Shown here: piece after piece, positions 3,468 to 39,059 of the stretch
Layout: every line of letters begins with the position of its first letter
Position numbering within the stretch: position 1 is the stretch's first letter
Source of the DNA: Candidatus Doudnabacteria bacterium
GTDB lineage: Bacteria > Patescibacteriota > Doudnabacteria > UBA920 > O2-02-FULL-48-8
NCBI GenBank assembly: GCA_016199215.1
Contig: JACQHB010000007.1
Location: 1-39,059, forward strand
Length of the DNA stretch: 39,059 nucleotides
Reading direction: 5' to 3'
The notes under the pieces: generated by a model
What the model saw: the letters and a program-made list of their open reading frames with translations, nothing else
Database searches by the model: none
Told to the model about the DNA's origin: nothing
Position numbers and translations under genes: made by a program

Positions 3468-5216
3468 ATGAATTTAGATGTCCAGGAATTGAAAAGGGCC
3501 GTGGTTGGCAAAAAACTTGTCACAGTTCACGCTTGGAATGATTTGGTCAAAGAAGCCGTGGAGAAAAAAGCGGACTTAGCTCAGCTGTTGATCGAAAAAA
3601 AGATCTTGGACGAGGAAGCGTTGGCCCAAATTTCGGCCGGCTTTTTAGATTCCGAGTTTGTTGACCTAAAACAACTTGGGCAAATTTCCAAGGAAGTTTT
3701 GCTGTTGGTGCCGGAGCCGATCGCCCGGCGTCACGGCGTGATCGCTTTTGGCAAAGAAAAGGACAAACTTAAGCTTGCAATGATCGATCCCAATGACTTG
3801 GAAACCAGGGACGCGATCAAGAAAAAAACTGACCTAGTAGTCGAGCCTTATTTGATTTCCAAAGGATCACTTGATTACGGATTGAAGCAATACCATACTT
3901 CGTTGGAGGCGGAATTTGCCAAAATCGTTTCCAAACAAGACACCGCGGACGAGAAACAAAAGCAGGACGTAAACGAGAAGCTCAAGGAGATGGCTGAAGA
4001 AATCCCGGTTGTCCGGGTCGTGGACACGCTTTTGGAATACGCGATTTTTGAAAAAGCCTCGGATATCCATATAGAGCCGCAAGAAAAAGAGGTAATCGTC
4101 CGCTACCGAATTGACGGCGTGCTGCATGATGCCATGACCCTGCCAAAAGTGATCCAGCCGGCGTTGGTCGCCCGCATCAAGGTTATTGCCAATCTCAAGA
4201 TCGACGAGCATCGTCTGCCGCAGGACGGCCGGTTCAAAATCCAAAAAGACGAATATAATATTTCATTCCGCGTCTCCACCATTCCGGTGTTTGACGGGGA
4301 AAAAGTCGTGATGCGTCTGCTGGATGAATCGGCCAAAGCCATGAGTTTGGAAGAATTGGGATTTTTCCACCGCAACTACGAAACGATCATCCGGAATGTC
4401 AAAAAACCCCACGGGGCTTTGCTGGTCACAGGGCCTACGGGCAGCGGAAAGTCCACGACCCTTTATACGATTCTTTCCATGTTAAATACGAAAAACGTAA
4501 ATATTTCAACGATTGAAGACCCGATTGAATACAGGATTGAGGGGATCAACCAAATGCAGGTGAATCCGAAAATTGGGCTGACTTTTGCCCAGGGGTTGCG
4601 CGCGCTTTTGCGCCAAGACCCCAACGTGATTATGATCGGTGAAATCCGCGACACTGAAACCGCGGAAGAAGCAGTGCACGCCGCGCTTACCGGCCATATA
4701 GTGCTTTCCACCTTGCATACCAACAACGCCGGCGGCGCGCTCCCCAGGCTTTTGGATATTGGCGTTGAGCCTTATTTGATTGCCTCCACGGTCAATGCCG
4801 TGGTCGGCCAGCGCCTGACCAGGCAGATCTGCCAGGATTGCAAAATCGAGGACAAGATAGACGCCAAAGAGGAAGAGGAACTGCGCAAGGAATTTAATAT
4901 CGACGTCCTGCTTGCAGTCATGAAGCGGGAGGGGTTTATAGAAAAATCGGTCAAGACTTTATCGGAGCTGACTTTTTACAAAGGCAAGGGTTGCGACAAG
5001 TGCGCGCATACCGGATACAAAGGGCGAAAAGGAATTTTCGAAGTTTTGGAAGTTAGCGCCGAAATCCAAGACCTGATCCTCAAGCATGCTCCTACCAGCC
5101 AGATCCAGGACAAGGCAGTGGAGGCCGGAATGATTCTGATGTGGCAGGATGGATTCATCAAGTGCATTCAAGGCAGGACCACGATAGAAGAAATTTTGAG
5201 GGTAAGCAAGGAATAA
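3468..5216 (+). CDS. pilB: Type IV pilus assembly ATPase (PilB/GspE family)
   Basis: ASDIHIEP, DEHRLPQDGR, Walker A GPTGSGKST, TIEDPIEY, LRQDPNVIMIGEIRD, TGHIVLSTLHTN, tetracysteine zinc motif. Confidence 0.95.
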   Translation: MNLDVQELKRAVVGKKLVTVHAWNDLVKEAVEKKADLAQLLIEKKILDEEALAQISAGFLDSEFVDLKQLGQISKEVLLLVPEPIARRHGVIAFGKEKDKLKLAMIDPNDLETRDAIKKKTDLVVEPYLISKGSLDYGLKQYHTSLEAEFAKIVSKQDTADEKQKQDVNEKLKEMAEEIPVVRVVDTLLEYAIFEKASDIHIEPQEKEVIVRYRIDGVLHDAMTLPKVIQPALVARIKVIANLKIDEHRLPQDGRFKIQKDEYNISFRVSTIPVFDGEKVVMRLLDESAKAMSLEELGFFHRNYETIIRNVKKPHGALLVTGPTGSGKSTTLYTILSMLNTKNVNISTIEDPIEYRIEGINQMQVNPKIGLTFAQGLRALLRQDPNVIMIGEIRDTETAEEAVHAALTGHIVLSTLHTNNAGGALPRLLDIGVEPYLIASTVNAVVGQRLTRQICQDCKIEDKIDAKEEEELRKEFNIDVLLAVMKREGFIEKSVKTLSELTFYKGKGCDKCAHTGYKGRKGIFEVLEVSAEIQDLILKHAPTSQIQDKAVEAGMILMWQDGFIKCIQGRTTIEEILRVSKE

Positions 5217-5325
5217 TGCAAAGATCAAAAATCAAAAATCAAAATGTAATTAAAAAAGCAAAAAGAACAATAAGTTTTAATTTTGCATTGTCATTTTGCA
5301 TTTTGCATTTTGACTTTTGAATTTT
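5217..5325. repeat. 7-bp-periodic inverted-repeat element, empty copy: (CAAAAAT)n ... (TTTTGCA)n
   Basis: Left arm tcaaaaatcaaaaatcaaaatg; right arm cattttgcattttgcattttgacttttgaattt; lies between pilB and pilC. Confidence 0.75.
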
Positions 5326-5330
5326 TAGTC

Positions 5331-6545: not shown

Positions 6546-6556
6546 AGTATAGAAAT

Positions 6557-6964
6557 ATGGGTCCAAATTCCAAATTCCAAATTCCAAATTCCCAAAAGGG
6601 GATCAGCCTGATCGAAGTAATCATCAGCATGTTCATGCTGGCAGTGCTGTTGACGCTGTATGCCGCGGCCATGAACACCCTTGCCCAGACCAAAAAATTG
6701 AAATACGAGGATCTGGCCTACCACGTGGCCAGCAAAAAAATGGAAGAGCTGCGCGCCACTTCTCTTGACTCCCTGCCGTCATCCGGTGCTGTGACGGATC
6801 CAATGCTCGCGCAGATCCCCTCCGGCAGCGCGGATTTTTCCGTGGCTGATTACGGCGGTTTTTCAGGAATGAAGGAAATCGTGGTAACCGTGAACTGGAA
6901 CGACGGTGGGGCAAAGCAGGTCCGGTTGCAGACCCTGGCCGGATCAGGAGGGATTAATCCGTGA
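6557..6964 (+). CDS. Prepilin-type minor pilin (PilV-like); leader peptide contains (CCAAATT)4
   Basis: Class III signal KG|ISLIEVIISMFML; C-terminal KEIVVTVNW strand. Confidence 0.85.
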   Translation: MGPNSKFQIPNSQKGISLIEVIISMFMLAVLLTLYAAAMNTLAQTKKLKYEDLAYHVASKKMEELRATSLDSLPSSGAVTDPMLAQIPSGSADFSVADYGGFSGMKEIVVTVNWNDGGAKQVRLQTLAGSGGINP

Positions 6965-13828: not shown

Positions 13829-13953
13829 TAAATCCGAAATTCAAATATCGAAAATCCTAAACAATGTCAAAATCCAAAGCCCAAATGTTTCAAACATTTG
13901 AATTTTGAACCTTTGAATTTGTTTCGAATTTAGTGCTTCGTGCTTCGAATTTA
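13829..13953. repeat. 7-bp-periodic inverted-repeat element, empty copy
   Basis: taaatccgaaattcaaatatcgaaa...tttgaatttgtttcgaatttagtgcttcgtgcttcgaattta; arms resemble those at 24689, 25211-25275 and 26431. Confidence 0.8.
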
Positions 13954-13968
13954 GCTATAATGCTTAAT

Positions 13969-15993
13969 ATGACTGAAAAGTTAAATTTAGGACTTAACGA
14001 AGCCCAGCTTAAGGCCGTAACCGCGCCAATGGGGCCGGTTTTGATTTTGGCCGGGGCTGGCAGCGGTAAAACGCGGGCTTTAAGCATGCGGATCGTGTAT
14101 CTTATAAAAAAATTAGGAATGGATCCCGAAAATATTTTAGCCGTGACCTTTACCAATAAAGCAGCCGGAGAAATGAAAGAGCGGATTTTGAAACTTTTAA
14201 GAAGAGAGGACCGTCCTCTGAAGGAGGACGGTCCTGTGGCCTTGCCGGCCATGGGAACATTCCACTCTATCGGAGCCAGGATTTTGCGGACAGAAGGACG
14301 CCGGTTGGGGCTTAGCCCGAATTTTTTGATTTATGATACTTCTGATCAGGAGAGTTTGCTTAAAGAGGTTTTGGCAAAGCTTCGGATTGATGCGACAAAG
14401 TTTAAACCCTCGCTGTTTGCTCATGTCATTGATCGCGCCAAGAACAATCTGATTGAGCCGGAAGACTATAACGATGATGATAACGATAACCGCTTCAATG
14501 ACATGGCTCGGAGGGTTTTTGTCCAATATCAAGAAAGCTTGCGACAAAATAATGCTGTTGATTTTGGGGATCTGTTGGTCTTGCCGGTCAAATTATTCCG
14601 CGACCATCCCGAGATTTTGAAGAAATATCAGGACAAGTGGCAATATGTATTGGTCGACGAATACCAGGACACAAACCAAGTCCAATATACTTTTACCAAG
14701 CTTTTGGTTTCCAAGCGCAAGAATATTTTCGTGGTGGGGGATGACGCGCAGGCCATTTACGGGTTTAGGGGAGCTAATTTGCAGAATATTTTAGATTTCG
14801 AGGAAGATTACCCCGACGCAAGCATTTACAGGCTTGAGCAGAATTACCGTTCAACCGCGCAAATTTTGGCCATTGCCGAAAAAATCATTGAACTTTCCCC
14901 TCGCCAGCATAAAAAGAAGCTCTGGACCGAAAACCACAACGGCCAAGCTCCGGTTTTGTTCCGGGCCGAGGATGAAATGGTGGAGGCCTGGTTCGTGGCG
15001 CGTAAAATTATCGAGCTTCAGGACGGGAGTCCGGGCGAAATCACTTACGATTATGATGACGACTCGATCCTTTCCAGGGTAATGCGCAGGGCCAGGCAAA
15101 GAGTCCTGCCCAAGCTAAAAAATCGACAAGGGTTGAATAATTTCGCGGTGCTTTACCGAACCCACGCCCAATCGCGCGCCGTGGAAGAAGTGATGATCGA
15201 AAGCGGAATTCCGTACCAGATCATCGGCGGTCTTAAATTTTATGAACGGAAAGAAATCAAAGACCTGTTGGCTTATCTGAAATTGCTGGTGAACCCAAAC
15301 GATCTTGTCAGCCTGAAGCGCGTGATCAACGTTCCTCCCCGGGGCATTGGCCCGAAAAGTTTTGATTTGCTAAAAGAAGCCCTTCTTGAGAAAAAAGACA
15401 AAGCCTTGGCTAAATTATTTGACGAAAAGCCGGCGGTGAAGATTTTTTTTGAAATTGTTGATGCTGTTTCGAGTTTGGACGAAACCGCGACGCTTCCCCA
15501 GATCATGAGCCAGGTTCTTAAGATGACCGGTTATGAAAGTTTTCTGCGCGACGGGTCGGAGGAAGCGGAAAGCCGATGGGAAAACGTCCAGGAGCTTTTC
15601 AACGTCGCGACAAGTTTTGAGAAGTTTAATTGGAAAGAGGGGCTGACAAGATTTCTTGAGGAAGTCAGCTTGATGACCAATGTGGACGAGCTGGACCCCG
15701 CCACCCAGAAAGTTACATTAATGACTTTGCATCAGGCCAAGGGTTTGGAATTTGATACCGTATTCCTAATCGGGCTTGAAGAGGGGATTCTTCCTCATGC
15801 CAGATCGATCATGGAGGCTAAAGATGTGGCGGAAGAGATCAGGCTTGCTTATGTCGGCGTCACCAGAGCCAGAAAGAACCTTTTTTTGATTTATTGTTCA
15901 TCACGCAAACAGTTTGGAACAAGGAATATGAGCGTACCCTCGAGGATACTAAAAGCAATACCCGAGGAGCTTTTAGATGTTTATGAATTTTAA
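13969..15993 (+). CDS. pcrA: ATP-dependent DNA helicase PcrA/UvrD
   Basis: LNEAQ, AGAGSGKT, VTFTNKAA, DEYQDTN, VGDDAQAIYGFRGA, LEQNYRST, TLHQAKGLEF, EEIRLAYVGVTRA; start at ATG 13969 (7 nt after TATAAT 13956-13961) or 13960. Confidence 0.95.
   Translation: MTEKLNLGLNEAQLKAVTAPMGPVLILAGAGSGKTRALSMRIVYLIKKLGMDPENILAVTFTNKAAGEMKERILKLLRREDRPLKEDGPVALPAMGTFHSIGARILRTEGRRLGLSPNFLIYDTSDQESLLKEVLAKLRIDATKFKPSLFAHVIDRAKNNLIEPEDYNDDDNDNRFNDMARRVFVQYQESLRQNNAVDFGDLLVLPVKLFRDHPEILKKYQDKWQYVLVDEYQDTNQVQYTFTKLLVSKRKNIFVVGDDAQAIYGFRGANLQNILDFEEDYPDASIYRLEQNYRSTAQILAIAEKIIELSPRQHKKKLWTENHNGQAPVLFRAEDEMVEAWFVARKIIELQDGSPGEITYDYDDDSILSRVMRRARQRVLPKLKNRQGLNNFAVLYRTHAQSRAVEEVMIESGIPYQIIGGLKFYERKEIKDLLAYLKLLVNPNDLVSLKRVINVPPRGIGPKSFDLLKEALLEKKDKALAKLFDEKPAVKIFFEIVDAVSSLDETATLPQIMSQVLKMTGYESFLRDGSEEAESRWENVQELFNVATSFEKFNWKEGLTRFLEEVSLMTNVDELDPATQKVTLMTLHQAKGLEFDTVFLIGLEEGILPHARSIMEAKDVAEEIRLAYVGVTRARKNLFLIYCSSRKQFGTRNMSVPSRILKAIPEELLDVYEF
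14207..14235. repeat. REP-like palindrome in frame within pcrA
   Basis: AGGACCGTCCTC-tgaag-GAGGACGGTCCT, perfect 12-bp arms; encodes EDRPLKEDGP. Confidence 0.75.
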
Positions 15994-16090
15994 ATTCAAA
16001 GCACAAAGCTCAAATTTCAAATAAGAGTTAATAATTAATATTTTAATTTTTAAAATATATTTGTGCTTTGAATTTTGGACTTTGAAATTT
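15991..16090. repeat. 7-bp-periodic inverted-repeat element, empty copy, beginning at the pcrA stop codon
   Basis: taaattcaaagcacaaagctcaaatttcaaa ... tttgtgctttgaattttggactttgaaattt. Confidence 0.75.
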
Positions 16091-16094
16091 TTTT

Positions 16095-16913
16095 ATGAAC
16101 AATCTCACAGACATAACTTATCTCAAATCTTTTTTAAAACAGTCCGGCCTGAAGCCTCGGCATTACCTCGGCCAGAATTTTTTGGTTGATCAGGATGTGC
16201 TGAATCGGATTATCGAGGCCGCAGATCTAAAAAAATCTGACACTGTGCTTGAAGTGGGGCCGGGGATAGGGACACTTACTTCTGAGTTGATTAAGCGGGC
16301 GGGGAAGGTGATAGCGGTGGAGAAGGATGAGTCAATGGCCAGAATCTTTGAGAAGGAATATGGAATATGGATCCAAATTCCAAATTCCAAATTCCAATTA
16401 GTTAACCAGGACATCCTTCGGTTCCATCTTGATCGGCATATTCAAGGCCCTTACAAAGTTGTTGCAAATATTCCTTATTATTTGACTTCAGTTTTATTCC
16501 AATATTTTCTTGGACAAGAAAACAAACCGGAGCTTCTTGTTTTAATGGTGCAAAAAGAAGTTGCGGAAAGAGTGGTTGCAAGCCCTGGGGAGTTATCAGT
16601 TCTTGGGATATCCGTGCAATTTTACGCAGACCCGGAAATTGTAGGAATCGTGAACAAGGAAAGTTTTTGGCCGCAGCCAAAAGTTGATTCCGCCATTTTG
16701 AAAATAACGCCTGTAAATAAATTTCCGGAAGTGGAGGACGAAAAATTATTTTTTAGAATTGTTAAGTCCGCGTTTGCCGGAAAAAGAAAACAGCTTAAGA
16801 ATACGATTAGGGATGTTGAGGCTTTGCGAAGAGCGGGGGTTGAGCCCACTGCAAGACCCCAAGATTTGCAGATAGAAGACTGGGTCAGGCTTTACAAAAT
16901 CATGAAAAGATGA
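16095..16913 (+). CDS. rsmA: 16S rRNA (adenine(1518/1519)-N6)-dimethyltransferase RsmA/KsgA
   Basis: LGQNFL, VLEVGPGIG, AVEKD, VVANIPYY, MVQKEVAER, FWPQPKVDSA, F.GKRKQL.N. Confidence 0.95.
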   Translation: MNNLTDITYLKSFLKQSGLKPRHYLGQNFLVDQDVLNRIIEAADLKKSDTVLEVGPGIGTLTSELIKRAGKVIAVEKDESMARIFEKEYGIWIQIPNSKFQLVNQDILRFHLDRHIQGPYKVVANIPYYLTSVLFQYFLGQENKPELLVLMVQKEVAERVVASPGELSVLGISVQFYADPEIVGIVNKESFWPQPKVDSAILKITPVNKFPEVEDEKLFFRIVKSAFAGKRKQLKNTIRDVEALRRAGVEPTARPQDLQIEDWVRLYKIMKR

Positions 16914-20392: not shown

Positions 20393-23300
20393 ATGAATAT
20401 TATCGTCAAGAAAATTTTATTAATCCTTACTTTGGCCTTTTTGGCAAACCTTTCGTTTGCTGATTTAGGTTTTGCTGTAATTTCGCCCACCCCCCCGCAG
20501 GAAGTATTGATTGAGCCGGGGGAATTAAATTTGATTAATAAAGATAAAAAGATTCAGGAATGTGAAACAACTCTTTCAAACCGTCTTTACAAAGTTTCGG
20601 ATTTTGGTTTTATGGAAAGCGGAACTGGCTTATGGCTGGAAAACGTCACTTGGCTCGTTGCCAGATGGGACTACACAAATAATCAATGTTTAATTTATCA
20701 AAAGCAGAGAATAAATTTTGCTACCGATGCAAAAATTGATAGCTTTGAAGCAAGAGGCTATAAAACCGAAGATATAACCGCTACTGGAGCTTATTACTTG
20801 GAAAGAACGGAATATGCCAGGATGGTGGAAAATAAGCTTAAGAACACAAGCACTAAGATTACGGTGCAAAATTTTAACAGGACAGTTGGGGCAAATACGG
20901 AAGCAACTGGCGCAAGCAAAGTAATCGGCACGATTCTTGCAAAGCTTATTGGTTTGGTTACGTCAGCAGTTCTTGCTCTAACCTCCATGGCCGGTGAATT
21001 AATGTCCTGGGTGATTGATGAAGTCACTGGCGCCGCTCAACCCCTTGTCGTTACCACTGGTTGGAAGATAATAAGAGATATTATGAACATGATTTTCATA
21101 TTGGCGCTCATTATTATGTCTCTTGGAACCATACTTAGGATTGAGAAATATAATTATAAAAAGTTATTGGTCAAGCTGGTTATAATGGCTATACTGATTA
21201 ATTTCAGCAAAGTAATCGCCGAGTCCTTCATTGGCTTAGTTGATATTCTGATTAGAATCTTTGCAGCCCAAGGGAACTGGACGGAATTTTTAAGTTATGC
21301 AAAAAATATCGCGTTTTACGCCGATTTTTCTTCAAGCAAAGGTTTTTTAAGCGATTTAGGACTTTCCATAACCGGACTTATCCTTGCTCTCGTGATGCTT
21401 GTAACATTTTTAGCTGTCGCACTGCTTCTGGTTATTCGCACCGTTGGCCTGTGGGTTTTAGTTATTCTTTCCCCAGTGGCTTATGCCCTCTATATTCTCC
21501 CGGGTACAGAGAAATGGGCGCAGAAATGGTGGGAAACCTTTATTAAATATCTTATATGGGCTCCAGTGGCAGTATTTTTCCTGCGGCTTGGCGATATTTT
21601 TATAGTAGAAATGAGAGCGAGGTTAACAAGCACTAAAACAAATAATCCGACTTTTGATTTTATTTTTGCTATGGCTTTTATGTGGGCAGCGGTTTACGTT
21701 GCCAAGCAGGCGGGGATGGTTGGGGGAGATATGGCGATTAAGGGAGCAAAGAGCGTCGTTACTGGCAAATATGGCATGAAAGGGGCTGCCCAATGGGGAC
21801 TTGGTGCAACTGATAGATGGCTGGGCCGAGGGGCTAGTAGTTCCAGCAAGCTTAGAAGAGGGTTATCGTATGCGAGCGTCGGAGCCTGGAAAAAAGGCAG
21901 AAAAGAGAGAAGTCAGAAATTAGAAGAAGAGGCGTATACTGTATCTGGCGGTATGAGGGCGAACGTTCTTTCAAAGGTCTTTGGCGGGCCTCGTGATTTT
22001 GCAAAATTAGCCCAGTACCAAAGAGTTGCCCAGGAAAGGAGGCGGCTTGAGAATGTGGTTGATAAGGATGAATTAACAGCAGAAGTTATGCAGGCGTTAA
22101 ATAGAAAAGAGTGGGATAAAGCAATGGGCGGAATGATGAAATTAGCTGCGCAAGGGGATTTGAATGAGGTGCTCTTGGCAAAAGGCTTAACCGCGGATGC
22201 CCAAGGTCTGCAGGCATTAATAAATGAGATAGTAACCAAATCGGGGAATAATACATATATGAGGATGGGGGCGGAACTTTCAAAAACTGCGGAAAATGCC
22301 AACTGGTGGGTTTTAGCCGGGGCTTTTAAACGCAATGATGACGGGAGTTGGTCAAATCGTTCGGAAGAGGACAGAAGAGGATACGTTAATGTTCAAAGAG
22401 CAAAGGCGAGTGATCAGGTTAACATAAGAACCCTTACAAGGGCCGGTATCGGTTTCAAAGAAAGAGTGGATGAGAATGGTGTCTGGTATGTCGAAGGTAT
22501 AACTGAGGACGGTTTGGATTATGCTTCCCGGGTAAAAAATATCCAAGAATGGCGGAACAATGGCAACAAGAATGCAAAAGCGAACGTCGCCATTAGCGGT
22601 TCAGCGGATTGGTTGAGGGTTAATCCAGAAGCTTGGGCTGTGGCAGCAAATGAATATGCAAGCACAAAATTGGATGATCCTGACCGTTTGGAACAACTGC
22701 ATAAATCTGTTGCCGCTCCAAACCCGCAGAGAGACTATGGTACAAATAGAACCGTGAATGCTACACAGGCTAGGGCATATTTTAACCGATTCACAGGAGA
22801 AGAAAGAGATAAAAAAATTAAAGACTATTCTGATTTGGCGCGTTTGGCCGGAATAACGCCCCCAGGAGCTGCTGGGACTCAGCCTGCTCCAACTGCTACC
22901 ACTCCTGCAGCTACCGGTGGCGCAGCAACAACTGCCACAGCAGCTACAGGCCGAGGAGGATCAAGCCAACCTCAATCAAGATTTGAGAGTACTTCGGGAC
23001 AAGCTGTTGTGGTGGAAAACAGAGCTCCTCATGTTCAGACGGCAACGGAAGTGATTAGAGAAGTAAGAGCTCCAGCGGGTGCTCACGATGCCATACGTGA
23101 AGTGTCTAGGCAGTTTCATGGGGGTGAACAGCTTGATGTAGGCGTCATTAAAGACCAACTAAGAAACTTGGGATTAAGCGTTGAACAAGCCAGTGATGCG
23201 ATAAGCTCTTTGGCAAAGCGCGCTGCTGATTTTAGAGTGAACCGAGTAAGTGATGCCGCTTATAATAGGACAGGAATCGACATGTCTGAATTTAAAAGGG

Positions 23301-23440
23301 TTTTGAAAAATTTTATGTCTGCGCGACACGAAACAGGTGGGGAAGTCAACGAAAGAGTGATAGTAAACACAATAAGGTCCCAATGGCCCCAAGTAAACTC
23401 AAATGACGCTCAAACTATTGCTAGACAAATGTTTGGTTAA
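20393..23440 (+). CDS. Extended VirB6/TrbL-like polytopic membrane protein
   Basis: GWKIIRDIMN, AILINFS, R.VGLWVLVILSPVAY, WAQKWW.TF.KY...APV TM core; about 550-aa soluble C-terminal tail; lies upstream of PrgI and VirB4. Confidence 0.7.
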   Translation: MNIIVKKILLILTLAFLANLSFADLGFAVISPTPPQEVLIEPGELNLINKDKKIQECETTLSNRLYKVSDFGFMESGTGLWLENVTWLVARWDYTNNQCLIYQKQRINFATDAKIDSFEARGYKTEDITATGAYYLERTEYARMVENKLKNTSTKITVQNFNRTVGANTEATGASKVIGTILAKLIGLVTSAVLALTSMAGELMSWVIDEVTGAAQPLVVTTGWKIIRDIMNMIFILALIIMSLGTILRIEKYNYKKLLVKLVIMAILINFSKVIAESFIGLVDILIRIFAAQGNWTEFLSYAKNIAFYADFSSSKGFLSDLGLSITGLILALVMLVTFLAVALLLVIRTVGLWVLVILSPVAYALYILPGTEKWAQKWWETFIKYLIWAPVAVFFLRLGDIFIVEMRARLTSTKTNNPTFDFIFAMAFMWAAVYVAKQAGMVGGDMAIKGAKSVVTGKYGMKGAAQWGLGATDRWLGRGASSSSKLRRGLSYASVGAWKKGRKERSQKLEEEAYTVSGGMRANVLSKVFGGPRDFAKLAQYQRVAQERRRLENVVDKDELTAEVMQALNRKEWDKAMGGMMKLAAQGDLNEVLLAKGLTADAQGLQALINEIVTKSGNNTYMRMGAELSKTAENANWWVLAGAFKRNDDGSWSNRSEEDRRGYVNVQRAKASDQVNIRTLTRAGIGFKERVDENGVWYVEGITEDGLDYASRVKNIQEWRNNGNKNAKANVAISGSADWLRVNPEAWAVAANEYASTKLDDPDRLEQLHKSVAAPNPQRDYGTNRTVNATQARAYFNRFTGEERDKKIKDYSDLARLAGITPPGAAGTQPAPTATTPAATGGAATTATAATGRGGSSQPQSRFESTSGQAVVVENRAPHVQTATEVIREVRAPAGAHDAIREVSRQFHGGEQLDVGVIKDQLRNLGLSVEQASDAISSLAKRAADFRVNRVSDAAYNRTGIDMSEFKRVLKNFMSARHETGGEVNERVIVNTIRSQWPQVNSNDAQTIARQMFG

Positions 23441-23445
23441 AATAT

Positions 23446-24690
23446 ATGCCTTTTAAGCTTAACAAAATTGAAATACAAGGACAGCTGTCGGATCCCAAGG
23501 TTTACGACAGTGTTCTCTTTTTTGCCGATTTAGTTCTTGATGAAAATTCCGGTGCAAATATACACAAATTTCATCAGGATCTTAAGCATGCGCTTCAACA
23601 GCAGAAGAATCAATTAGGTGAAAACGCAAGCAGATATGACTCCTTACTATTGAGGCTGCAATTCCGATCTATTCCTTTGTTGTCAGATGAAGAAATTAAA
23701 GGAATTTTGTCGAAAAGGATATTTTTTGCATACAAAGCGGACGTCGATCTGAAAAAATCTTTTTCCATGATGTTTGTGCCGTTTTTTTTCCAGGATGATT
23801 TTACCACTCTCACGAGAATTATTCGTCATTTGGAAGATAATAGCGAGACAATCGGCAGGAATAACATTATCCTCACTGACGGAAAAGTAGTCCATCCATT
23901 GATCTCGAATTGGTTAAAAGATTATAGGATTAAGACAGTGGAAAATAAAGGCAGCCTTAATATAATCAGCTTTCTAACCCATAGCAATAATTGTAAGAAC
24001 TTAAACGAACAAGAACTCGGATTTTTGAAATATGTTTTGAATTTTTACGATTGGCTTAGGTTTGAGGCAAGCAAAACTTCGTTTATAGAAGAAGATATTC
24101 CAGCTAAAAGTATTATCCGGCCTGTCCCTCCCCCTGCTCCAAGTATTATACAACCACCGCAGCTTCCCAAATTTCCCGTAAAATTTAATCAGGAAATTGC
24201 CGTCTCGCCAAAGCCTGTCCATCTTGTTCCGTTTAAGGTCGACCTTAAAGAAATTGAGAGGGAAGTGGGTACTCCGGAATTGCCTGCGCCAAAGACTCAG
24301 ATTTTCCGCGGACAATCGCCAACAGTTCCGCATCCGGCTGCGGTTTTCGACCCGCGCACCCGCATGCATCAAGATTTCGGCGGGCAGGGAAAAGTGGCCG
24401 CACAGCAAATCAATGTGATTGATGATCTTAAAAAACTTGACGTTGGCTATCTAAGGCGAGGGGAGCTGCAAAAGCAAATATCAAATATCAAATATCAAAT
24501 ATCAAAATTGGCGCAAGTAAATCACCTGTATCCTTATCAGGTTGTCATGGCTTTTGAACAAAGCCCCCTGTTTAAGCTTTACTTGTCGCATGGCAGTTCA
24601 CGCGTTATCGGCCAGCCGACGAAGGACGATTTGTCTCAACCCGAATTTGAGGCCATTGCGGATTTGAGGAAAGAGATTGAAAGATTGTAA
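23446..24690 (+). CDS. Hypothetical cytoplasmic protein with a Pro-rich linker and repeat-derived segments
   Basis: 414-aa ORF in the operon; ISNWLKDY and FEQSPLFKLY motifs; no confident family. Confidence 0.7.
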   Translation: MPFKLNKIEIQGQLSDPKVYDSVLFFADLVLDENSGANIHKFHQDLKHALQQQKNQLGENASRYDSLLLRLQFRSIPLLSDEEIKGILSKRIFFAYKADVDLKKSFSMMFVPFFFQDDFTTLTRIIRHLEDNSETIGRNNIILTDGKVVHPLISNWLKDYRIKTVENKGSLNIISFLTHSNNCKNLNEQELGFLKYVLNFYDWLRFEASKTSFIEEDIPAKSIIRPVPPPAPSIIQPPQLPKFPVKFNQEIAVSPKPVHLVPFKVDLKEIEREVGTPELPAPKTQIFRGQSPTVPHPAAVFDPRTRMHQDFGGQGKVAAQQINVIDDLKKLDVGYLRRGELQKQISNIKYQISKLAQVNHLYPYQVVMAFEQSPLFKLYLSHGSSRVIGQPTKDDLSQPEFEAIADLRKEIERL

Positions 24691-25275
24691 ATCCGAATAT
24701 CGAATATCGAAATCCGAAACAAATTCAAATGTCTAAAATTCAAAACAAAAAGCCCCTTTTGGGCTATTTTGTTTATTGATAAGATTATGTTATAATATTG
24801 GGGATAAATTCTAAAGTGAATATCGAAGTCCGAAACAAATTCAAATGCCCGAAGCTCAAAACCCAAAGAACTATGATTTGGAAGAAAGAACGTATAAATT
24901 TGCGGCAGATTGCAGAAAGCTTATAAAGAAAATTTCCAGAACTATATCTAACATTGAGGATTGTAAACAGCTGACTAAGTCTTCAGGTTCAATACCTGCA
25001 AATTATATAGAAGCCAACGAGGCTCTAAGCAAAAAAGACTTTGTAATGCGCATTAAAATCTGCCGTAAAGAATCTAAAGAGAGCATTTTGTGGTTACGGT
25101 TATTTGATCTCGAAGACCCCACTTTAGACAAAGAACGAAACAGATTAAAACAAGAAGCCACCGAACTTATGAAGATATTTGGTTCGATATTAAGAAAGTC
25201 AGAATAGCACTGTTTCAATATTTGATATTTGAATTTAGATATTGTTTCGAATTTCGGGTTTCGTGCTTCGATATT
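24689..25275 (+). mobile_element. 7-bp-periodic inverted-repeat element carrying a four-helix-bundle gene and its own promoter
   Basis: Left arm aaatccgaatatcgaatatcgaaatccgaaacaaattcaaatg (second degenerate copy about 24806-24847); TG-n-TATAAT at 24788-24796; right arm ttgtttcgaatttcgggtttcgtgcttcgatatt; mobility is inferred. Confidence 0.65.
24845..25207 (+). CDS. Four-helix-bundle protein (23S rRNA IVP / Avd-like family)
   Basis: YDLEERT..FA, QL.KSSGSIPANYIEA.E..SKKDF..RIKICRKE.KE...WL, L.QEA.EL.KIF.SI. Confidence 0.92.
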   Translation: MPEAQNPKNYDLEERTYKFAADCRKLIKKISRTISNIEDCKQLTKSSGSIPANYIEANEALSKKDFVMRIKICRKESKESILWLRLFDLEDPTLDKERNRLKQEATELMKIFGSILRKSE

Positions 25276-25296
25276 AAATAAGAACAAGAATAAATT

Positions 25297-25737
25297 ATGC
25301 AGTATGCTTTGCCTCAATTTACCGACATCGAAGACAAGCTGATCGGGCCGTTGACGTTAAAACAGTTTCTGTCTCTTTTGGCCACAGGCGGCCTGGTTTT
25401 ATTTTTTTGGTCGATATTCAAAATCAGTATTTTCTTTTTCTTTTTCGCGCTCCCAGTCGCCTTGTGCGGTATTTTTATCACTTTCGGCAGATTTAATGGA
25501 AGGTCGGTATTCACTTACGTACTTCCTTTTTTGGCTTTTATGGCCCGGCCAAGACTAAGGATATTTAAGAGAGAAACCCCCACCTTGGCCATTCAAAAAA
25601 GCGTCCGGACCAAAGAGGAAATAAAAAAGAGTCCAGAGAACTCAGCTGAAGAGCCGGGGAGCCGACTTAAGAAATTAGCCTATTTATTGGACCAGAGATC
25701 GCTTGAAGAAAGCAAATTAGCGAAAGAAGACATATGA
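25297..25737 (+). CDS. prgI: PrgI family protein (VirB3-like)
   Basis: MQY.LPQF.DIEDKLIGPLTLKQF, two TMs, FNGRS. Confidence 0.88.
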   Translation: MQYALPQFTDIEDKLIGPLTLKQFLSLLATGGLVLFFWSIFKISIFFFFFALPVALCGIFITFGRFNGRSVFTYVLPFLAFMARPRLRIFKRETPTLAIQKSVRTKEEIKKSPENSAEEPGSRLKKLAYLLDQRSLEESKLAKEDI

Positions 25738-26426
25738 GCGAAATGGCATCAAAAGAAAAAGCGGGAGCGGGAACGCAGGCCTACTTAGACATTGCCGAAG
25801 TAAGAGAGGGAACAGTGGTTCTCAAAGATGCTTCTATGAGAGCAGTCGTGGTAGTTTCTTCCACCAATTTTTCCCTGAAAAGCGGAGAGGAGCAGAACGC
25901 TTTAATTAATTCTTACCAGAGTTTCCTTAATTCATTGGAATTCCCGATCCAAATAGTTATGCAGTCGAGAAAACTGGACGTCCACGGCTATTTGGACAAA
26001 CTTAGGGCGATAATGCAGCAACAGACAAACGAACTCTTGCGCCTGCAGACCCAGGAATATATTGAATATGTCGGAAAGTTGATTGAATTTGCCAGCATAA
26101 TGAACAAGACTTTTTACGTGGTGGTCCCTTATTCCACTCAGGCGACGAAACAAGGATTTTTTAATAAGCTAGGGTCAATCTTAAACCCTGCTTCTACTGT
26201 TAGTCTTAAAAAACAGGAGTTCGAGGCGCACAGGGAAGAGCTTTATAAAAGAGTTAACCAGGTAGTCGGCCTTCTATCAAGCATGGGATTGAGGGCTCTT
26301 GTTTTGGATACCGAAGAATTGATTGAGCTGATGTATAATAGCTATAATTTTGATTCCGCGTCGCCGATTCATATTAAGAGCGTCGCGGAGCTTGAAGTGG
26401 CGGGCAATCAAGACGAAAGCCCTTAG
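25734..26426 (+). CDS. Conjugation/T4SS-associated protein (resembles the TraC/VirB4 N-terminal region)
   Basis: STNFSLKS.EEQ...YQSFLNSLEFPIQI..QSRKLD, KTFYVVVPY, L.TEELIEL.YNSYN; lies between PrgI and VirB4. Confidence 0.75.
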   Translation: MSEMASKEKAGAGTQAYLDIAEVREGTVVLKDASMRAVVVVSSTNFSLKSGEEQNALINSYQSFLNSLEFPIQIVMQSRKLDVHGYLDKLRAIMQQQTNELLRLQTQEYIEYVGKLIEFASIMNKTFYVVVPYSTQATKQGFFNKLGSILNPASTVSLKKQEFEAHREELYKRVNQVVGLLSSMGLRALVLDTEELIELMYNSYNFDSASPIHIKSVAELEVAGNQDESP

Positions 26427-26429
26427 CAT

Positions 26430-26563
26430 TAAATCCGAATATCGAATATCGAAATTCGAAACAATATCAAATGACCAAAATAATAAATCCAAAACATCGT
26501 TCAGATATTAAATATTTGAAATTTGAATTTGTTTCGTGCTTCGGATTTCGTGTTTCGGATTTA
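26430..26563. repeat. 7-bp-periodic inverted-repeat element, empty copy
   Basis: The 34-nt left arm from 26431 differs at one base from that at 24689; right arm tttgaatttgtttcgtgcttcggatttcgtgtttcggattta. Confidence 0.85.
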
Positions 26564-26570
26564 TAAAAAT

Positions 26571-28397
26571 ATGGCTTTATTCAAGAACAAATCATCGCCC
26601 AGACAAGAAACTCAAAGAAAGATGCTGGAAGCGGAACGCCAATTCCGGCAGGGTTTAAACACTCTGCGGGACTTAATAGCTCCTTCGGCTTTCAGGGTTA
26701 ATTCAAATAACGTGGAAATTTCCGGCAAGCTGGCAAGATCTTTTTTTGTCCTGTCTTATCCCCGTTTTATTTCAGTTGACTGGCTTGCTCCCATAATCAG
26801 TTTGGACGCGACAATGGACATGTCCATGTTTATCTACCCGATGGGAACGGAGGATGTTATGAAAAAGCTTCGAAACAAAGTGGGGCAGTTGGAATCAACC
26901 ATTTCTATGAACCAGCAGAGGGGCAATGTCCGCGATCCGATGCTTGAAACCGCTTACCAGGACGTGGAAGCTTTGCGCAACCGGCTCCAGCAGGGGACTG
27001 AAAAATATTTCAGGTTTTCTTTGTATTTCACAATTTACGCCGATAATCAGAAAGACCTGGATCAGATATCTTCAACGATCGAATCCCTGTTGGGTTCCAA
27101 ACTGATTATCGCCAAACAATCTATTCTCCAAATGGAGCAAGGGTTCAATTCCACCTTGCCTCTGGGCAATGATGAGTTGGCTGTGGCAACCAATATGAAC
27201 ACGGAGCCTCTTTCCACCACCTTTCCTTTTGTCTCCACCGAACTTACCAGCAATGACGGGATACTTTATGGAATCAATCGTCATAACAACAGCTTGATTT
27301 TATTTGACAGGTTTCAGATGGAAAATGCCAATTCCGTATGTTTTGCCAAATCCGGCGCTGGAAAAAGCTACGCGATTAAACTGGAGATCCTGCGATCATT
27401 GATGCTAGGGTCGGAAGTGATAGTGATTGATCCTGAAAACGAATACAAGCATCTTTCAGATGCCGTGGGCGGGTCTTTCTTAAACGTTTCGCTGAATTCT
27501 AACTCACGGGTAAATCCTTTTGATTTGCCGAAGTCAATCGAAGGAGAAAATAACGAGGATATTTTAAGGGCGTCAGTGGTAAATTTGCTGGGCTTAATGA
27601 ATTTAATGCTTGGCAGGCTCAATCCGACCGAGGAGGCGATAATGGATCGGGCAATTTGGGAAACTTACGCGAAGAAAGATATTACTCCAGCAAGCAGCTT
27701 CAACAATATCGAGCCTCCCCTGATGCAAGATTTGGTTGATGTCCTCGGAGGCATGGTCGGCGGAGAAAGTTTGGCCCAACGATTGACCAAATACACTGAA
27801 GGGACTTTTTCCGGTATTTTCAACCAGCCGACCAACATTAACATGGACAACCAGCTGGTGGTTTTTTCAGTGAGGGATCTGGAAGAAGCCCTGCGCCCGA
27901 TTGCCATTTATATAATTCTCAATTTTATATGGAATATGGTAAGGTCTGAATTAAAAAAGCGGATTCTGGTCATTGACGAAGCCTGGTGGATGATGCAAAG
28001 AGAGGATTCCGCAAAATTTTTGTTCGGCATGGCTAAGCGCGCGCGCAAGTATTATTTGGGCGTAACCACGATTACCCAGGACGTATCTGACTTTTTGCAA
28101 AGCCCGTACGGCAAGCCGATTGTTACAAATTCCTCAATCCAGCTGCTGCTCAAGCAGAGTCCGGCTGCCATTGATTTGATTGCCCAGACATTCTTCTTGA
28201 CCGAGGGGGAGAAATACTTGCTTTTGGAATCGGATGTTGGAGAGGGAATTTTCTTTGCCGGGCTTAAGCACGTTGCCATTAAAATAATCGCCTCATACAT
28301 GGAAGACCAGATTATAACCACAGATCCCAAAAGAGCGTTGGAAATAGAACAGGCGAAAAAAGAATTGCAAGCAGTAAACGAAAATGATAATGCCTAA
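26571..28397 (+). CDS. virB4: VirB4-like T4SS ATPase
   Basis: Start moved to ATG 26571; FPF.S, GILYGIN, Walker A AKSGAGKS, VIDPENEY, VNPFD, Walker B VIDEAW, KRARKY...TITQ. Confidence 0.9.
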   Translation: MALFKNKSSPRQETQRKMLEAERQFRQGLNTLRDLIAPSAFRVNSNNVEISGKLARSFFVLSYPRFISVDWLAPIISLDATMDMSMFIYPMGTEDVMKKLRNKVGQLESTISMNQQRGNVRDPMLETAYQDVEALRNRLQQGTEKYFRFSLYFTIYADNQKDLDQISSTIESLLGSKLIIAKQSILQMEQGFNSTLPLGNDELAVATNMNTEPLSTTFPFVSTELTSNDGILYGINRHNNSLILFDRFQMENANSVCFAKSGAGKSYAIKLEILRSLMLGSEVIVIDPENEYKHLSDAVGGSFLNVSLNSNSRVNPFDLPKSIEGENNEDILRASVVNLLGLMNLMLGRLNPTEEAIMDRAIWETYAKKDITPASSFNNIEPPLMQDLVDVLGGMVGGESLAQRLTKYTEGTFSGIFNQPTNINMDNQLVVFSVRDLEEALRPIAIYIILNFIWNMVRSELKKRILVIDEAWWMMQREDSAKFLFGMAKRARKYYLGVTTITQDVSDFLQSPYGKPIVTNSSIQLLLKQSPAAIDLIAQTFFLTEGEKYLLLESDVGEGIFFAGLKHVAIKIIASYMEDQIITTDPKRALEIEQAKKELQAVNENDNA

Positions 28398-32826: not shown

Positions 32827-32873
32827 ACCCACTAGGTATAAATTTTCAACTGGAGTTTTTAGGTCAAACATAC

Positions 32874-33056
32874 TGGTGTGGCTTTACAACCACGCTCGAA
32901 CGTATTTTAGCAAAAATTGCTGAATTTGGCGAACGCCTCCGCGCCGCCGCAAAGCGGAGGCGTGCCAAGTTTGTACTCGGGCGCAGCGGAAGGGGGGTGT
33001 GGGAGGAATTCCGCTACGCCCTCGCTTCGGCTGGTGGCGAAAAATTGGCGGCGGGC
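32874..33056 (+). repeat. Long inverted repeat arm (P'), partner at 37064-37239
   Basis: Near-identical ~42-bp and ~75-bp blocks separated by a divergent hairpin-containing middle. Confidence 0.9.
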
Positions 33057-33062
33057 GGAACT

Positions 33063-33839
33063 CTAAAAATTGAAAGGTTTTGAATTTTGCCAAATAATAT
33101 CAAACTGGCCTTTCATTGTCTTGGTAAATTCTTGGCTTTTGATAATGAACCCAAAATTTTCACGAGATGAAGAGATAAATCTCACCGTATTTTCATAGAT
33201 AGCATACCCCAAAGAAAAATCTGTTCCTTCTGGAGCTAATCTTACTTCTCGGTTATTTTGATTTCCAATTTTAAGAAAAGGATATTTTTCCAAAGACGGA
33301 ATTTGAGTACGCGGCCAAATGGTTTTTAAAGTAATATTTCTTTTTACTCTTTCATTATGAAATTCCTGGTGAAATTGCGGGGTCAGTAATTTAATTACGT
33401 CCAAAATAGGCCAATACACAGATACTGTTATATTTTGATAAAGTAGCATATCCTTCATCATTTGTTGCAGTTCCTCTCTTCCTTCGAATAATTGCAAAAT
33501 AGGTCTTAGTCGCACTTGACCTTTGCCATATATGCTTTTTAAATCCGCCATAGCTTCTCGTGCAAGAGCAAGATTTGTTTCTTGCTCAGTTAAAATTAGC
33601 TCAATTTTTTCAGGTAGTTCAACGCTATATTTTCTTATCCCACCTTTCAAAGTTTGGGTTACTAAACCTCGTTCTTTTAGTCGAGCGAGGTAATCGTACA
33701 CAGAAGTACGAGTGATATTTGCCTCGTGCGCCAATTCTGTTGCGCTAACTAACCCGCTTTCGAGTATCTTTTCAAAAATTTCTGCCTCGATCTCTTTGAG
33801 ATTAAACAGTGCGAGGATGTTCTTTAGTTTCGGAGTCAT
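33063..33839 (-). CDS. TrmB family transcriptional regulator
   Basis: HTH SATELA..ANITRTSVYDYL.RL.ERGLV; FEG.E, RVKRNI, REVR..P effector domain. Confidence 0.88.
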   Translation of the reverse strand: MTPKLKNILALFNLKEIEAEIFEKILESGLVSATELAHEANITRTSVYDYLARLKERGLVTQTLKGGIRKYSVELPEKIELILTEQETNLALAREAMADLKSIYGKGQVRLRPILQLFEGREELQQMMKDMLLYQNITVSVYWPILDVIKLLTPQFHQEFHNERVKRNITLKTIWPRTQIPSLEKYPFLKIGNQNNREVRLAPEGTDFSLGYAIYENTVRFISSSRENFGFIIKSQEFTKTMKGQFDIIWQNSKPFNF

Positions 33840-36986: not shown

Positions 36987-37063
36987 AGGGGAGTTGTTAG
37001 CTAAAAGCCGCGCGGATGGGAGGGTGGGCCAAGCGGCTTTCCTTTTTCTTATTTTGTTTTTAA

Positions 37064-37371
37064 GCCCGCCGCCAATTTTTCGCCACCAGCCGAAGCGAGG
37101 GCGTAGCGGAATTCCCCCACACCCCCTTCCGCCGCGCCCGAGCGCAGTATTGTCATTGTGCCGCGCGTAGCGCGGCTCTCTGTCATTTTTTACAAATTTT
37201 TGCTAAAATATGTTCGAGCGTGGTTGTAAAGCCACACCACTAAACAACTTTTCAATTTTTTTGAAGCCAAATTGTGGGCGGCACGAAGTGCCGCCCATTG
37301 GTTTTCCCCTGACAAATCCGCTTCGCTCGGCGCGCGCAGGCGCGCCTCGCGGTTGGCCAAAACGAGGTTCG
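37064..37371 (-). repeat. Internal inverted attP-like copy (P arm 37235-37371 plus P' arm 37064-37239)
   Basis: 37235-37371 is the reverse complement of 38923-39059 with 3 mismatches; 37064-37239 mirrors 32874-33056. Confidence 0.9.
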
Positions 37372-37571: not shown

Positions 37572-39059
37572 ATGCAAAAATTCTTTTTGTATGCCCGCAA
37601 GTCCACCGATGTGGAAGATAAGCAAGTTTTGAGTATTGAAGCGCAACTAACAGAATTGCGCGAGCTTGCCAAGCGTGAAAACTTGGAGGTAGTTGAGGAG
37701 TTGGTGGAGAAACAATCGGCCAAAATTCCAGGCAGACCAATTTTTAACGAAATGTTGCGAAGAATTGAAGCCGGAGAAGCTGCCGGAATTTTGGCCTGGC
37801 ATCCGGACAGATTGGCGCGCAATTCTGTTGACGGTGGAAAAATAATTTACCTTTTAGACACAGGTGGACTTGCGGGCTTGAAGTTTCCGCAGTTTTGGTA
37901 TGAAAACACCGCGCAAGGTAAATTCATGCTCAATATTGCTTTTGGGCAAAGCAAATACTATATAGACAATTTGAGCGAGAATACCAAACGAGGATTGCGC
38001 CAAAAAGTCAGACGAGGTGAATATCCCGGCCTTGCGCCTGTGGGTTATCAGAATGACCCTCGCACAAAAACCGTTGTCGTGGACAAAAAGCGAAGTGTGG
38101 TTATCCGCAAGGCCTTTGAGCTGTACGCGCAAAATAACTCTCGTTTAGAGGACATTGCCAACTTTTTGGCGCAGAATGGTATTCTCACTTCTGGTGGCAA
38201 GAAACTTCACCGAGACAGAATTTCTTTTATCCTTTCCAACCCGTTTTATTACGGACATTTTCGCTATGCTGGGGAGGTTCACGAGGGCAAGCACCAGCCA
38301 GTCGTCTCAAAGAAAATTTTTGATAAAGTCCAAGAGGTAATGAAGCAGAGAGGAAAACCTAAAACCAAAGGCAAAGTTGAAAAACCATTTGTCGGACTTT
38401 TACACTGTGATGAATGTGGCCGTATGATAACTGCCGAAATCCAGAAAGGTCATACTTATTATCGTTGCACGAAGAAAAACATTGTTTGTAGTCAGCCGTA
38501 TGTCCGTGAAGAAGAATTGGATCGGCAGTTATCTTCTCTGCTTCAAAAATTTTCTTTGAGACCGGATTGGGCGGCACAAATGGACAAAATGCTGAAAAAA
38601 GACAAAAAGGAATCCGCCCAATCCGCAACCGCTTTTGTTCAAGAGGCAGACGAAAAGACTAAGACACTAAATATCAAACTCCAGCGACTTTTAGACGGAT
38701 ATTTGGAACAAGATATTGAACGCGAAATATATCTCGAAAAGAAGCGAAATTTCATGAGTGAAAAAAAGTCGCTGGAGGAGCAAATCATCAACTTCGAACA
38801 AAAGCGGACTGGCTGGCTCGAACCGATGGCGGAATGGATAAAAGAAGCAGAATCTCTGCCTAAAATCGCACAAGAGAGCAACCTTTTCTCAAAAAAGGTT
38901 GCTGCCGAACATTTGTTCGGCTCGAACCTCGTTTTGGCCAACCGCGAGGCGCGCCTGCGCGCGCCGAGCGGAGAGGATTTGTCTGGGGAAAACCAATGGG
39001 CGGCACTTCGTGCCGCCCACAATTTGGCTTCAAAAAAATTGAAAAGTTGTTTAGTGGTG
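37572..39059 (+). CDS. Large serine recombinase (runs off the window; absent from the ORF track)
   Basis: Own translation, 496 codons with no stop: MQKFFLYARKST (catalytic Ser), WHPDRLARN, APVGY, NPFYYG, zinc ribbon CDECG...YYRC...C, coiled coil. Confidence 0.93.
   Translation, partial: MQKFFLYARKSTDVEDKQVLSIEAQLTELRELAKRENLEVVEELVEKQSAKIPGRPIFNEMLRRIEAGEAAGILAWHPDRLARNSVDGGKIIYLLDTGGLAGLKFPQFWYENTAQGKFMLNIAFGQSKYYIDNLSENTKRGLRQKVRRGEYPGLAPVGYQNDPRTKTVVVDKKRSVVIRKAFELYAQNNSRLEDIANFLAQNGILTSGGKKLHRDRISFILSNPFYYGHFRYAGEVHEGKHQPVVSKKIFDKVQEVMKQRGKPKTKGKVEKPFVGLLHCDECGRMITAEIQKGHTYYRCTKKNIVCSQPYVREEELDRQLSSLLQKFSLRPDWAAQMDKMLKKDKKESAQSATAFVQEADEKTKTLNIKLQRLLDGYLEQDIEREIYLEKKRNFMSEKKSLEEQIINFEQKRTGWLEPMAEWIKEAESLPKIAQESNLFSKKVAAEHLFGSNLVLANREARLRAPSGEDLSGENQWAALRAAHNLASKKLKSCLVV

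Follow-up and report, generated by a model that had tools for sequence, protein, structure and literature searches.

An IVP gene bracketed by inverted heptamer arrays in a conjugation-like operon of Candidatus Doudnabacteria: a possible intervening-sequence-type cassette outside rRNA

The IVP/S23p proteins form a widespread family that has relatives with solved structures and no assigned function, and the heptameric repeats found between bacterial genes are likewise unexplained. Both occur together in the intervening sequence (IVS) of the 23S rRNA of Coxiella burnetii. As described in the report on that system (PMC4990558), two to three tandem GACAGAT units precede the ATG of S23p, the number of units varies among strains, and the IVS stem of 28 bp is cut at its middle by RNase III in vitro, with the in vivo ends mapped there by rapid amplification of cDNA ends. 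The same report lists IVSs with S23p/IVP homologues in Leptospira, Brucella and Xanthomonas, and cites a homopentameric ring for the Xanthomonas IVP homologue (Lin 2006). In other literature, IVP genes are also noted inside cas loci and in 16S/23S insertions of bacteria of the Candidate Phyla Radiation. Here, we describe an IVP gene that lies between two inverted arrays of heptamers, hereafter the arms, within a conjugation-like operon of Candidatus Doudnabacteria. The DNA analyzed is a stretch of 39,059 nucleotides (contig JACQHB010000007.1 of assembly GCA_016199215.1), called the window as a whole, and plain coordinates refer to it. The closest precedent of the window element is the Coxiella 23S IVS.

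The element is made up of the following features.

24688..24748, plus strand: left arm 1, which starts on the TAA stop of the upstream gene A (inverted-repeat and Tandem Repeats Finder evidence).
24751..24775, plus strand: terminator-like GC hairpin followed by a T run, with a five-pair stem at 24751-24765, detected on both strands.
24788..24796, plus strand: TG-n-TATAAT string of the extended -10 type, a pattern match only, read from the sequence.
24818..24847, plus strand: partial second copy of the left arm, 30 nt long, 96.7% identical to 24702-24731 and containing the ATG at 24845.
24845..25207, plus strand: gene of the IVP, or four-helix-bundle, protein (PF05635, TIGR02436), 120 amino acids, intact, assigned from profile matches.
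25213..25276, plus strand: right arm, a T-rich complement of the left arm that ends 20 nt before the ATG of a PrgI-family gene.

Like the Coxiella IVS, the window element encodes a protein of the IVP family, has terminal inverted repeats that provide a stem around the open reading frame (ORF), and carries tandem heptamers directly before the ATG. Another trait of an IVS, insertion into a helix of 23S or 16S rRNA, is absent: the flanks are the PrgI-family gene and an unnamed gene, and no Rfam family reaches threshold anywhere in the window. Thus, whereas the Coxiella IVS resides in rRNA, the window cassette resides between protein-coding genes of a conjugation-like operon. It further differs in possessing its own terminator-like and promoter-like signals, a duplicated left arm and dispersed copies that lack the gene. 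Among 20 diverse IVP loci that were checked, none lies in rRNA (0/20).

The best explanation that we can offer, and one on which we stand evenly poised between belief and doubt, is that the window element is an IVS-type fold-back cassette outside rRNA. Such a cassette holds a small IVP gene, equipped with terminator-like and promoter-like signals of its own, between two arrays of about four to five imperfect heptamers that are inverted to each other. Read-through transcripts of the operon would fold the arms against each other, and the host RNase III, whose gene is present in the source genome (C6:6350-6742), would trim the cassette out of the polycistronic RNA, which would leave the insertion harmless to the neighboring genes. 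More speculatively, the pentameric IVP could bind the arm arrays with roughly one heptamer per subunit, and when bound might regulate the translation of its own message or assist in copying the cassette. We infer both the RNA processing at the window locus and the role of the IVP protein.

The IVP assignment draws on matches to PF05635 (E 8.6e-12; 45.7 bits, cut-off 33.8) and TIGR02436 (E 3.1e-18; 66 bits, cut-off 24). Residues 9-118 also match PDB 2rld, a structure of five chains (E 1.3e-8), and from this sequence match and the pentamer cited for the Xanthomonas homologue the protein is predicted to adopt a four-helix-bundle fold and to form a pentameric ring. Gln 42, Asn 53, Glu 56 and Glu 79 are invariant across a 14-sequence IVP alignment that includes the window IVP. 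The published family motif GxxRxxxSxxxNxxE is only partly kept, since a lysine stands at the position where most members carry arginine (read from the alignment). Scans of the window IVP against Pfam and NCBIfam matched no family of nucleases, recombinases or transposases, and PADLOC gave no match to it at all. Matches to PF05635 are found in 33 of 41 related small genomes (0.5-1.6 Mb), with up to nine per genome. The source genome (520,915 bp in 16 contigs, about 79% complete, with the window as its contig C5) contains five, four above the cut-off and one a 28-codon remnant. In two other loci, L012 (G001:C35, 617+ amino acids) and L007 (G021:C6, 343 amino acids), the IVP domain runs without a stop into a long open frame, which may represent a fusion, a lost stop or an assembly problem.

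The arms at the window locus are built of recognizable units. In left arm 1, CGAA cores recur every 7 nt in the outer units and the inner units are of a TCAAA type, and Tandem Repeats Finder reports period-7 arrays in all of the arms. The original prediction, made from the letters of this DNA, had placed the gene between a heptamer-periodic left arm and a complementary right arm, and this arrangement is borne out by the period-7 arrays and by the inverted pairs among the arms (I4-I7), which are 71-79% complementary over 52-59 nt. It had also described the left arm as present twice with a promoter between the copies. A second copy does exist and covers the ATG, so that RNA begun at the internal promoter would keep a stretch with which the right arm could pair, though this copy is only partial. 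Similarly, the TG-n-TATAAT string is where it was said to be, though the consensus promoter scan did not list it because the preceding TTGATA is only 9 nt away. The terminator-like hairpin sits between left arm 1 and this promoter-like string, and the same arm-terminator-promoter order is seen by eye in the relatives L013, L010 and L026 and at both IVP loci of L011. One further array lies upstream of the element.

24475..24506, plus strand: perfect (CAAATAT)x4.6 run in upstream gene A, 84% complementary to the inner right arm (25213-25243).

This run encodes the peptide QISNIKYQISK, which is conserved in relatives, so the heptamer array is, or has become, coding sequence in gene A.

The IVP gene family and the periodic inverted bracket go together across phyla. 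Within the source genome, periodic inverted arms are present at all five PF05635 matches (5/5), with a different heptamer at each locus, and the IVP locus on contig C8 repeats the order of arm, promoter, arm copy, gene and arm. Arrays in this genome are concentrated at a single period, with 22 at lag 7 versus 0-2 at each other lag from 3 to 12. Eighty further IVP loci were fetched from species-representative genomes of many phyla, cultured isolates included, and the IVP ORFs in the loci were picked with a hidden Markov model built from those loci. In all, 105 IVP loci with full flanks were tested, 30 from relatives and 75 from the species-representative genomes. The best period over the upstream and downstream flanks is 7 in 81 of the 105, 8 in 15 and 10 in 3. 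Lag-7 scores of 16/21 or more are reached upstream in 56/105 and downstream in 38/105, compared with 5/98 and 2/102 for control windows from the same loci. The proposal that gene and arms belong together therefore holds well beyond the locus on which it was made. Neither chance nor simple slippage suffices as the full explanation, because lag 7 dominates both genome-wide and around IVP genes relative to the control windows. The idea that period 7 is kept because each heptamer places stops in all three frames was dropped for the window locus, where the CGAA-type units have no stop codons.

The arms are also complementary unit by unit. They align as reverse complements better than 20 shuffles in 79/105 IVP loci, and in these 79 the upstream arm is purine-rich (>0.6) in 51 and purine-poor (<0.4) in 1. 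Where units differ from one another, 513 of 737 positions (70%) pair in register, compared with 37-44% after a shift of 7 or 14, and in-register pairing is best in 44/49 loci, though the test is biased upward as the aligner chooses the best register. Most upstream arrays (41/56) are four to five units long. G-rich heptamer arms also occur beside IVP genes, for example at L106, L089 and L065.

The surroundings of the element in the window are as follows.

20393-23440: TrbL/VirB6-like gene of the conjugation-like operon (profile match).
23446-24690: unnamed gene A of the same operon, directly before the IVP element.
25297-25737: PrgI-family gene B of the same operon (profile match).
25734-26426: VirB4-like ATPase ORF C, the N-terminal part (model positions 102-237).
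26430..26563, plus strand: gene-less hairpin of the same arm family, which fills the gap between the two VirB4-like ATPase ORFs (pair I7).
26523-28397: VirB4-like ATPase ORF D, the remainder (model positions 281-893).
13829..13953, plus strand: gene-less hairpin of the same arm family (inverted arms and fold z-score).

The TrbL/VirB6-like, PrgI-family and VirB4-like neighbors agree with the earlier placement of the IVP gene inside an operon resembling a type IV secretion system. The VirB4-like ATPase is split into two ORFs in relatives as well; in the source genome, the gap is the one filled by the gene-less hairpin.

Cassettes occupy the tight stop-to-start gaps of conserved operons, and their occupancy is patchy and non-orthologous. 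The A-B-C-D operon was recovered in 30 loci of relatives, where an IVP gene is found upstream of B (A|B) in eight, at B|C in five and at C|D in one. The last of these, in G009, lies at the very junction where the source genome has the gene-less hairpin 26430-26563. The B|C gap is usually 7-21 nt but extends to 420-480 nt in the five loci with an IVP gene there, and C|D is a tight junction. Several relatives' loci carry short spacers without a gene, 46-123 nt long, at B|C and C|D. A PIN-like gene lies between A and B in most relatives, and none is present in the source genome. A quick tree of 18 IVPs shows junction labels that cluster no more than shuffled ones (J1, seven changes over eight rows; J2, four changes over five rows), and its starred clades mix IVPs from different junctions and genomes. 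The window IVP is sister to another copy from the same genome. The original prediction had staked itself on arms that are enriched around this gene family and on a gene that is not stably syntenic in relatives lacking the arms; in the event, it was not refuted, as the gene shows no stable synteny, IVPs that share a junction are not each other's closest relatives, and relatives that carry an IVP gene also carry arms.

The gene-less hairpins at 13829-13953 and 26430-26563 had been recognized from the start as the same arms without the gene, and the repeat and inverted-pair matches support this. Repeat family D2 is formed by the 52-nt left arm (24688-24739) with copies at 26430-26481 (90%), 24804-24855 (69%) and 13829-13880 (67%), and family D3 is formed by the right arm at 25221-25276, 26508-26563 and 13898-13953 (73% to reference). 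RNA-fold z-scores against shuffles are -5.3 for the whole element, -4.83 for 26430-26563 and -3.26 for 13829-13953, with all shuffles beaten in each case. The window arm family occupies six places in the 0.52-Mb genome, with further copies at C1:37460, which is identical to the left arm at 41/41 positions, C4:73873-73977 and C12:23561-23603. Contigs assembled from four groundwater DNA runs, all of one study, extend this picture. Summed contig depth is 135-2700 over the arm bins versus about 3-15 over the unique flanks, and is also high over the 24475-24506 run in gene A. Many of the contigs join a left arm to a right arm via other short fillers, and their loose ends are sharp at 24688/24689, 24744, 26430 and 26562. 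The claim of a dispersed arm family is thus well founded.

[quoted passage not shown] Terminal inverted repeats and dispersed copies, as in MITEs, are indeed present in the window arm family, the occupancy is non-orthologous, the sense strand shows no excess of wobble pairs, and the nearest relative of the window IVP among the 18 in the tree is a copy in the same genome. However, no target-site duplication was seen by eye at five copies, no transposase-encoding partner was seen, and the protein itself matches none of the nuclease or recombinase families mentioned above. The arms of the cassette are inverted, so recombination between them would invert the gene rather than excise it. Moreover, the other IVP copies of the source genome are only 14-52% identical to the window IVP and have different arms, so the gene-bearing form has not spread in a recent burst, and a different protein family uses similar arms, as described below. 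Some metagenome joints do cross the IVP gene, but they have short sides (<40 nt), 88% likeness and different filler letters, and on these grounds they were rejected as excision at the window locus; we read them as many other copies, at other loci or in other organisms of the community. On balance, we find the MITE-like reading rather doubtful.

The window gene had also been cast as the candidate master copy of the family, and here the evidence runs the opposite way round. The 28-codon IVP remnant lies between arms on contig C9. In addition, a 123-nt gene-less hairpin at the B|C junction of the relative G008 (L117) aligns with both ends of a 476-nt IVP element at B|C of G007 (L122), with 33/37 identities at the left end and an alignment of 56 columns at the right. 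Some of these hairpins, at least, are therefore the gene-bearing element stripped of its ORF. Taken together, what the original prediction observed is confirmed, including the lack of a reverse transcriptase (RT) or transposase in cis, and its interpretation is partly supported.

A further possibility is that the hairpins serve the host. They would be intercistronic structures that set the stability or translation of the neighboring cistrons, comparable to repetitive extragenic palindromes (REPs) and bacterial interspersed mosaic elements (BIMEs) or to attenuators, and the IVP would be a regulator that binds RNA and chances to be encoded within some of them. A census with relaxed criteria found 118 long hairpins in the source genome, compared with 6 in a block-shuffled control, and 96 of the 118 are intergenic (stricter criteria gave 18 hairpins). 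Among 26 strongly 7-periodic hairpins, 15 fill the whole gap between ORFs (both gaps ≤15 nt), as judged from our own crude longest-ORF gene calls, with which labels of 'inside ORF' for lag-7 arrays may be wrong. Of the hairpins, 64 have an A-rich and 17 a T-rich 5' arm, but this polarity is uninformative with respect to gene direction, since a hairpin that pairs A-rich 5' with T-rich 3' sequence reads alike on both strands. Such a role would also suit the setting of the RNase III gene itself (minus strand), which has 7-periodic hairpins on both sides (C6:5990-6095 and 6803-6873). On the other hand, most relatives have tight, hairpin-free junctions at the orthologous positions, so the operon can do without the hairpins, and the turnover of arm sequence together with the patchy occupancy fits selfish or neutral insertions better than conserved regulators. 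We therefore judge a host-serving function to be unlikely. Two other intergenic 7-periodic hairpins of the window, 5212-5326 (TCAAAAA type) and 15992-16089 (TCAAAGC type), each fill a stop-to-start gap.

The fold-back cassette that we prefer has difficulties of its own. The right arm is complementary to the left, as had been claimed, but it is no clean complement: the window arm family consists of 4-bp CGAA/TTCG blocks parted by 3x3 mismatches, and these mismatches are conserved among five aligned copies. So poor a stem is no obvious RNase III substrate, and it fits an array of repeated motifs equally well. Across the loci, arm mismatches comprise 66 G:T and 92 A:C, so that wobble pairs show no trace of selection acting on the sense RNA. 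Cleavage at the window locus is purely what we infer, as the runs examined are DNA. Furthermore, the terminator-like hairpin and promoter-like string part left arm 1 from the gene, so that only read-through would place left arm 1 on one RNA with the right arm. By eye, no target-site duplication is present outside the termini of five arm-family copies. Finally, 24 of the 46 strong lag-7 arrays of the source genome are neither in a hairpin nor near a gene of the cassette type.

The arms can also be compared with other short repeats. MITEs, REP/BIME sequences, fold-back elements and attC sites resemble the arm family in being short, dispersed, palindromic elements in intergenic gaps. In attC sites, as in the arms, structure is kept although each copy has its own sequence. 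Eukaryotic fold-back elements likewise have arms built of short tandem units. Unlike for MITEs, REPs or attC sites, neither a partner (transposase, RAYT or integrase) nor a target-site duplication was seen for the arm family, and its cargo is either a helical protein that forms rings or a small protein with a nuclease fold.

More similar in their period are the over-represented intergenic heptamers whose function is unexplained. In two papers on these (PMC4692102, PMC4679880), they include GGGAATC in Xanthomonas, GGGGA(T/C)T in Nostoc, and TAACTGA in Beggiatoaceae, cyanobacteria and Bacteroidetes, and the Xanthomonas heptamers form 70-75 convergent (inverted) pairs. Like the window arms, these repeats have period 7, are intergenic and often stand immediately ahead of a start codon. 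Term searches of both papers for 23S, S23, four-helix and intervening gave nothing, though their supplementary gene lists may show IVP neighbors. A general link between IVP genes and heptamers was not found stated in the portions of the literature searched. Repeats of the Xanthomonas, Nostoc and Beggiatoaceae type may nonetheless be linked to IVP genes. Carried further, IVP rings and short-period arrays could constitute a general protein-repeat system. In such a system, a pentamer would read about five 7-nt units of an arm, folded or single-stranded, by their periodicity rather than their sequence, and this contact would underlie how a fold-back element without a transposase is copied or controlled, an element that colonizes stop-to-start gaps, rRNA helices and even reading frames; the orphan heptamers of Xanthomonas, cyanobacteria, Bacteroidetes and Beggiatoaceae would be its arms and relics. 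We offer this as a tentative idea with a modest chance of being right.

Seeing the gene and the repeats as one unit, characterized by four to five heptamers, unit-wise complementarity and patchy occupancy, merges two open questions into one. If the link between protein and repeat is functional, an orphan protein family becomes tied to an orphan class of repeats. Annotation may likewise be dealing with a single class of element, and not with unrelated oddities, where hairpins and small ORFs break up conserved operons, cas loci or rRNA.

The arms are not exclusive to the four-helix-bundle family, as a second, unrelated family of small proteins occupies an analogous setting. The B|C insert of G013 encodes a GxxExxY protein (TIGR04256, PF13366; PD-(D/E)XK fold) between inverted arrays with a CCGAA core, and in 27 GxxExxY loci of relatives the genes lie between inverted periodic arms with TACGAA, GCGAAT or CCGAAT cores. 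A CGAA core is therefore common to these arms and to the outer units of the window arms. The GxxExxY arms are spaced irregularly at 8-11 nt, and lag 7 is best in only 2/27. In L146, L147 and L148 (G013:C4, G009:C3 and G010:C6), the GxxExxY domain and periodic arms stand in-frame within an open frame of ~700-750 amino acids, so that the arms are read through as protein; the flanking translation resembles elongation factor 4 (LepA) by eye. Small ORFs that look GIY-YIG-like by eye are found at the A|B junction in L121 and L123. The one in L121 adjoins a GGTTGTA heptamer array, and the same array flanks an IVP gene in another genus (L011).

The IVP family is related in sequence to Avd, the accessory protein of diversity-generating retroelements (DGRs), which is likewise a four-helix bundle, and solved IVP relatives are pentameric rings. 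It could be imagined that the window IVP is such an accessory protein, acting in trans with an RT encoded elsewhere in the genome. The IVP copy on contig C8 matches phrog_3206, 'Avd protein of DGR' (E 4.3e-10), and the source genome does hold a DGR on that same contig (C8:34196-37609; L176), with an RT bearing the LGNLTSQ motif. This DGR is on a different contig from the window, however, its RT is split over two frames (238 + 133 amino acids), and it has its own adjacent, divergent helical ORF of 109 amino acids without heptamer arms. RVT_1 matches occur only on C8 and C4 in the source genome, no RT lies near any of its five IVP loci, and a repeat search revealed no template/variable repeat pair at the window IVP locus. 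Unlike Avd, then, the window IVP has neither RT nor template/variable repeats in cis, and we consider a DGR role highly improbable. Two near-repeat ORF ends at the C8 DGR differ mainly at N codons.

Repeats of other kinds are also present in the window. Runs of (TCCAAAT)n occur at 6554-6592 and 16355-16397 and share a 34-nt stretch that is 97% identical. One run starts a pilin-like ORF, before a KGISLIEV segment, and the other lies inside ORF 16095-16913, by eye a candidate rRNA dimethyltransferase. Near the window end, long inverted repeats of 48-137 nt are 86-98% complementary (32871-33075 versus 37045-37242, and 37235-37371 versus 38923-39059) and bracket segments of about 4 kb and about 1.5 kb.

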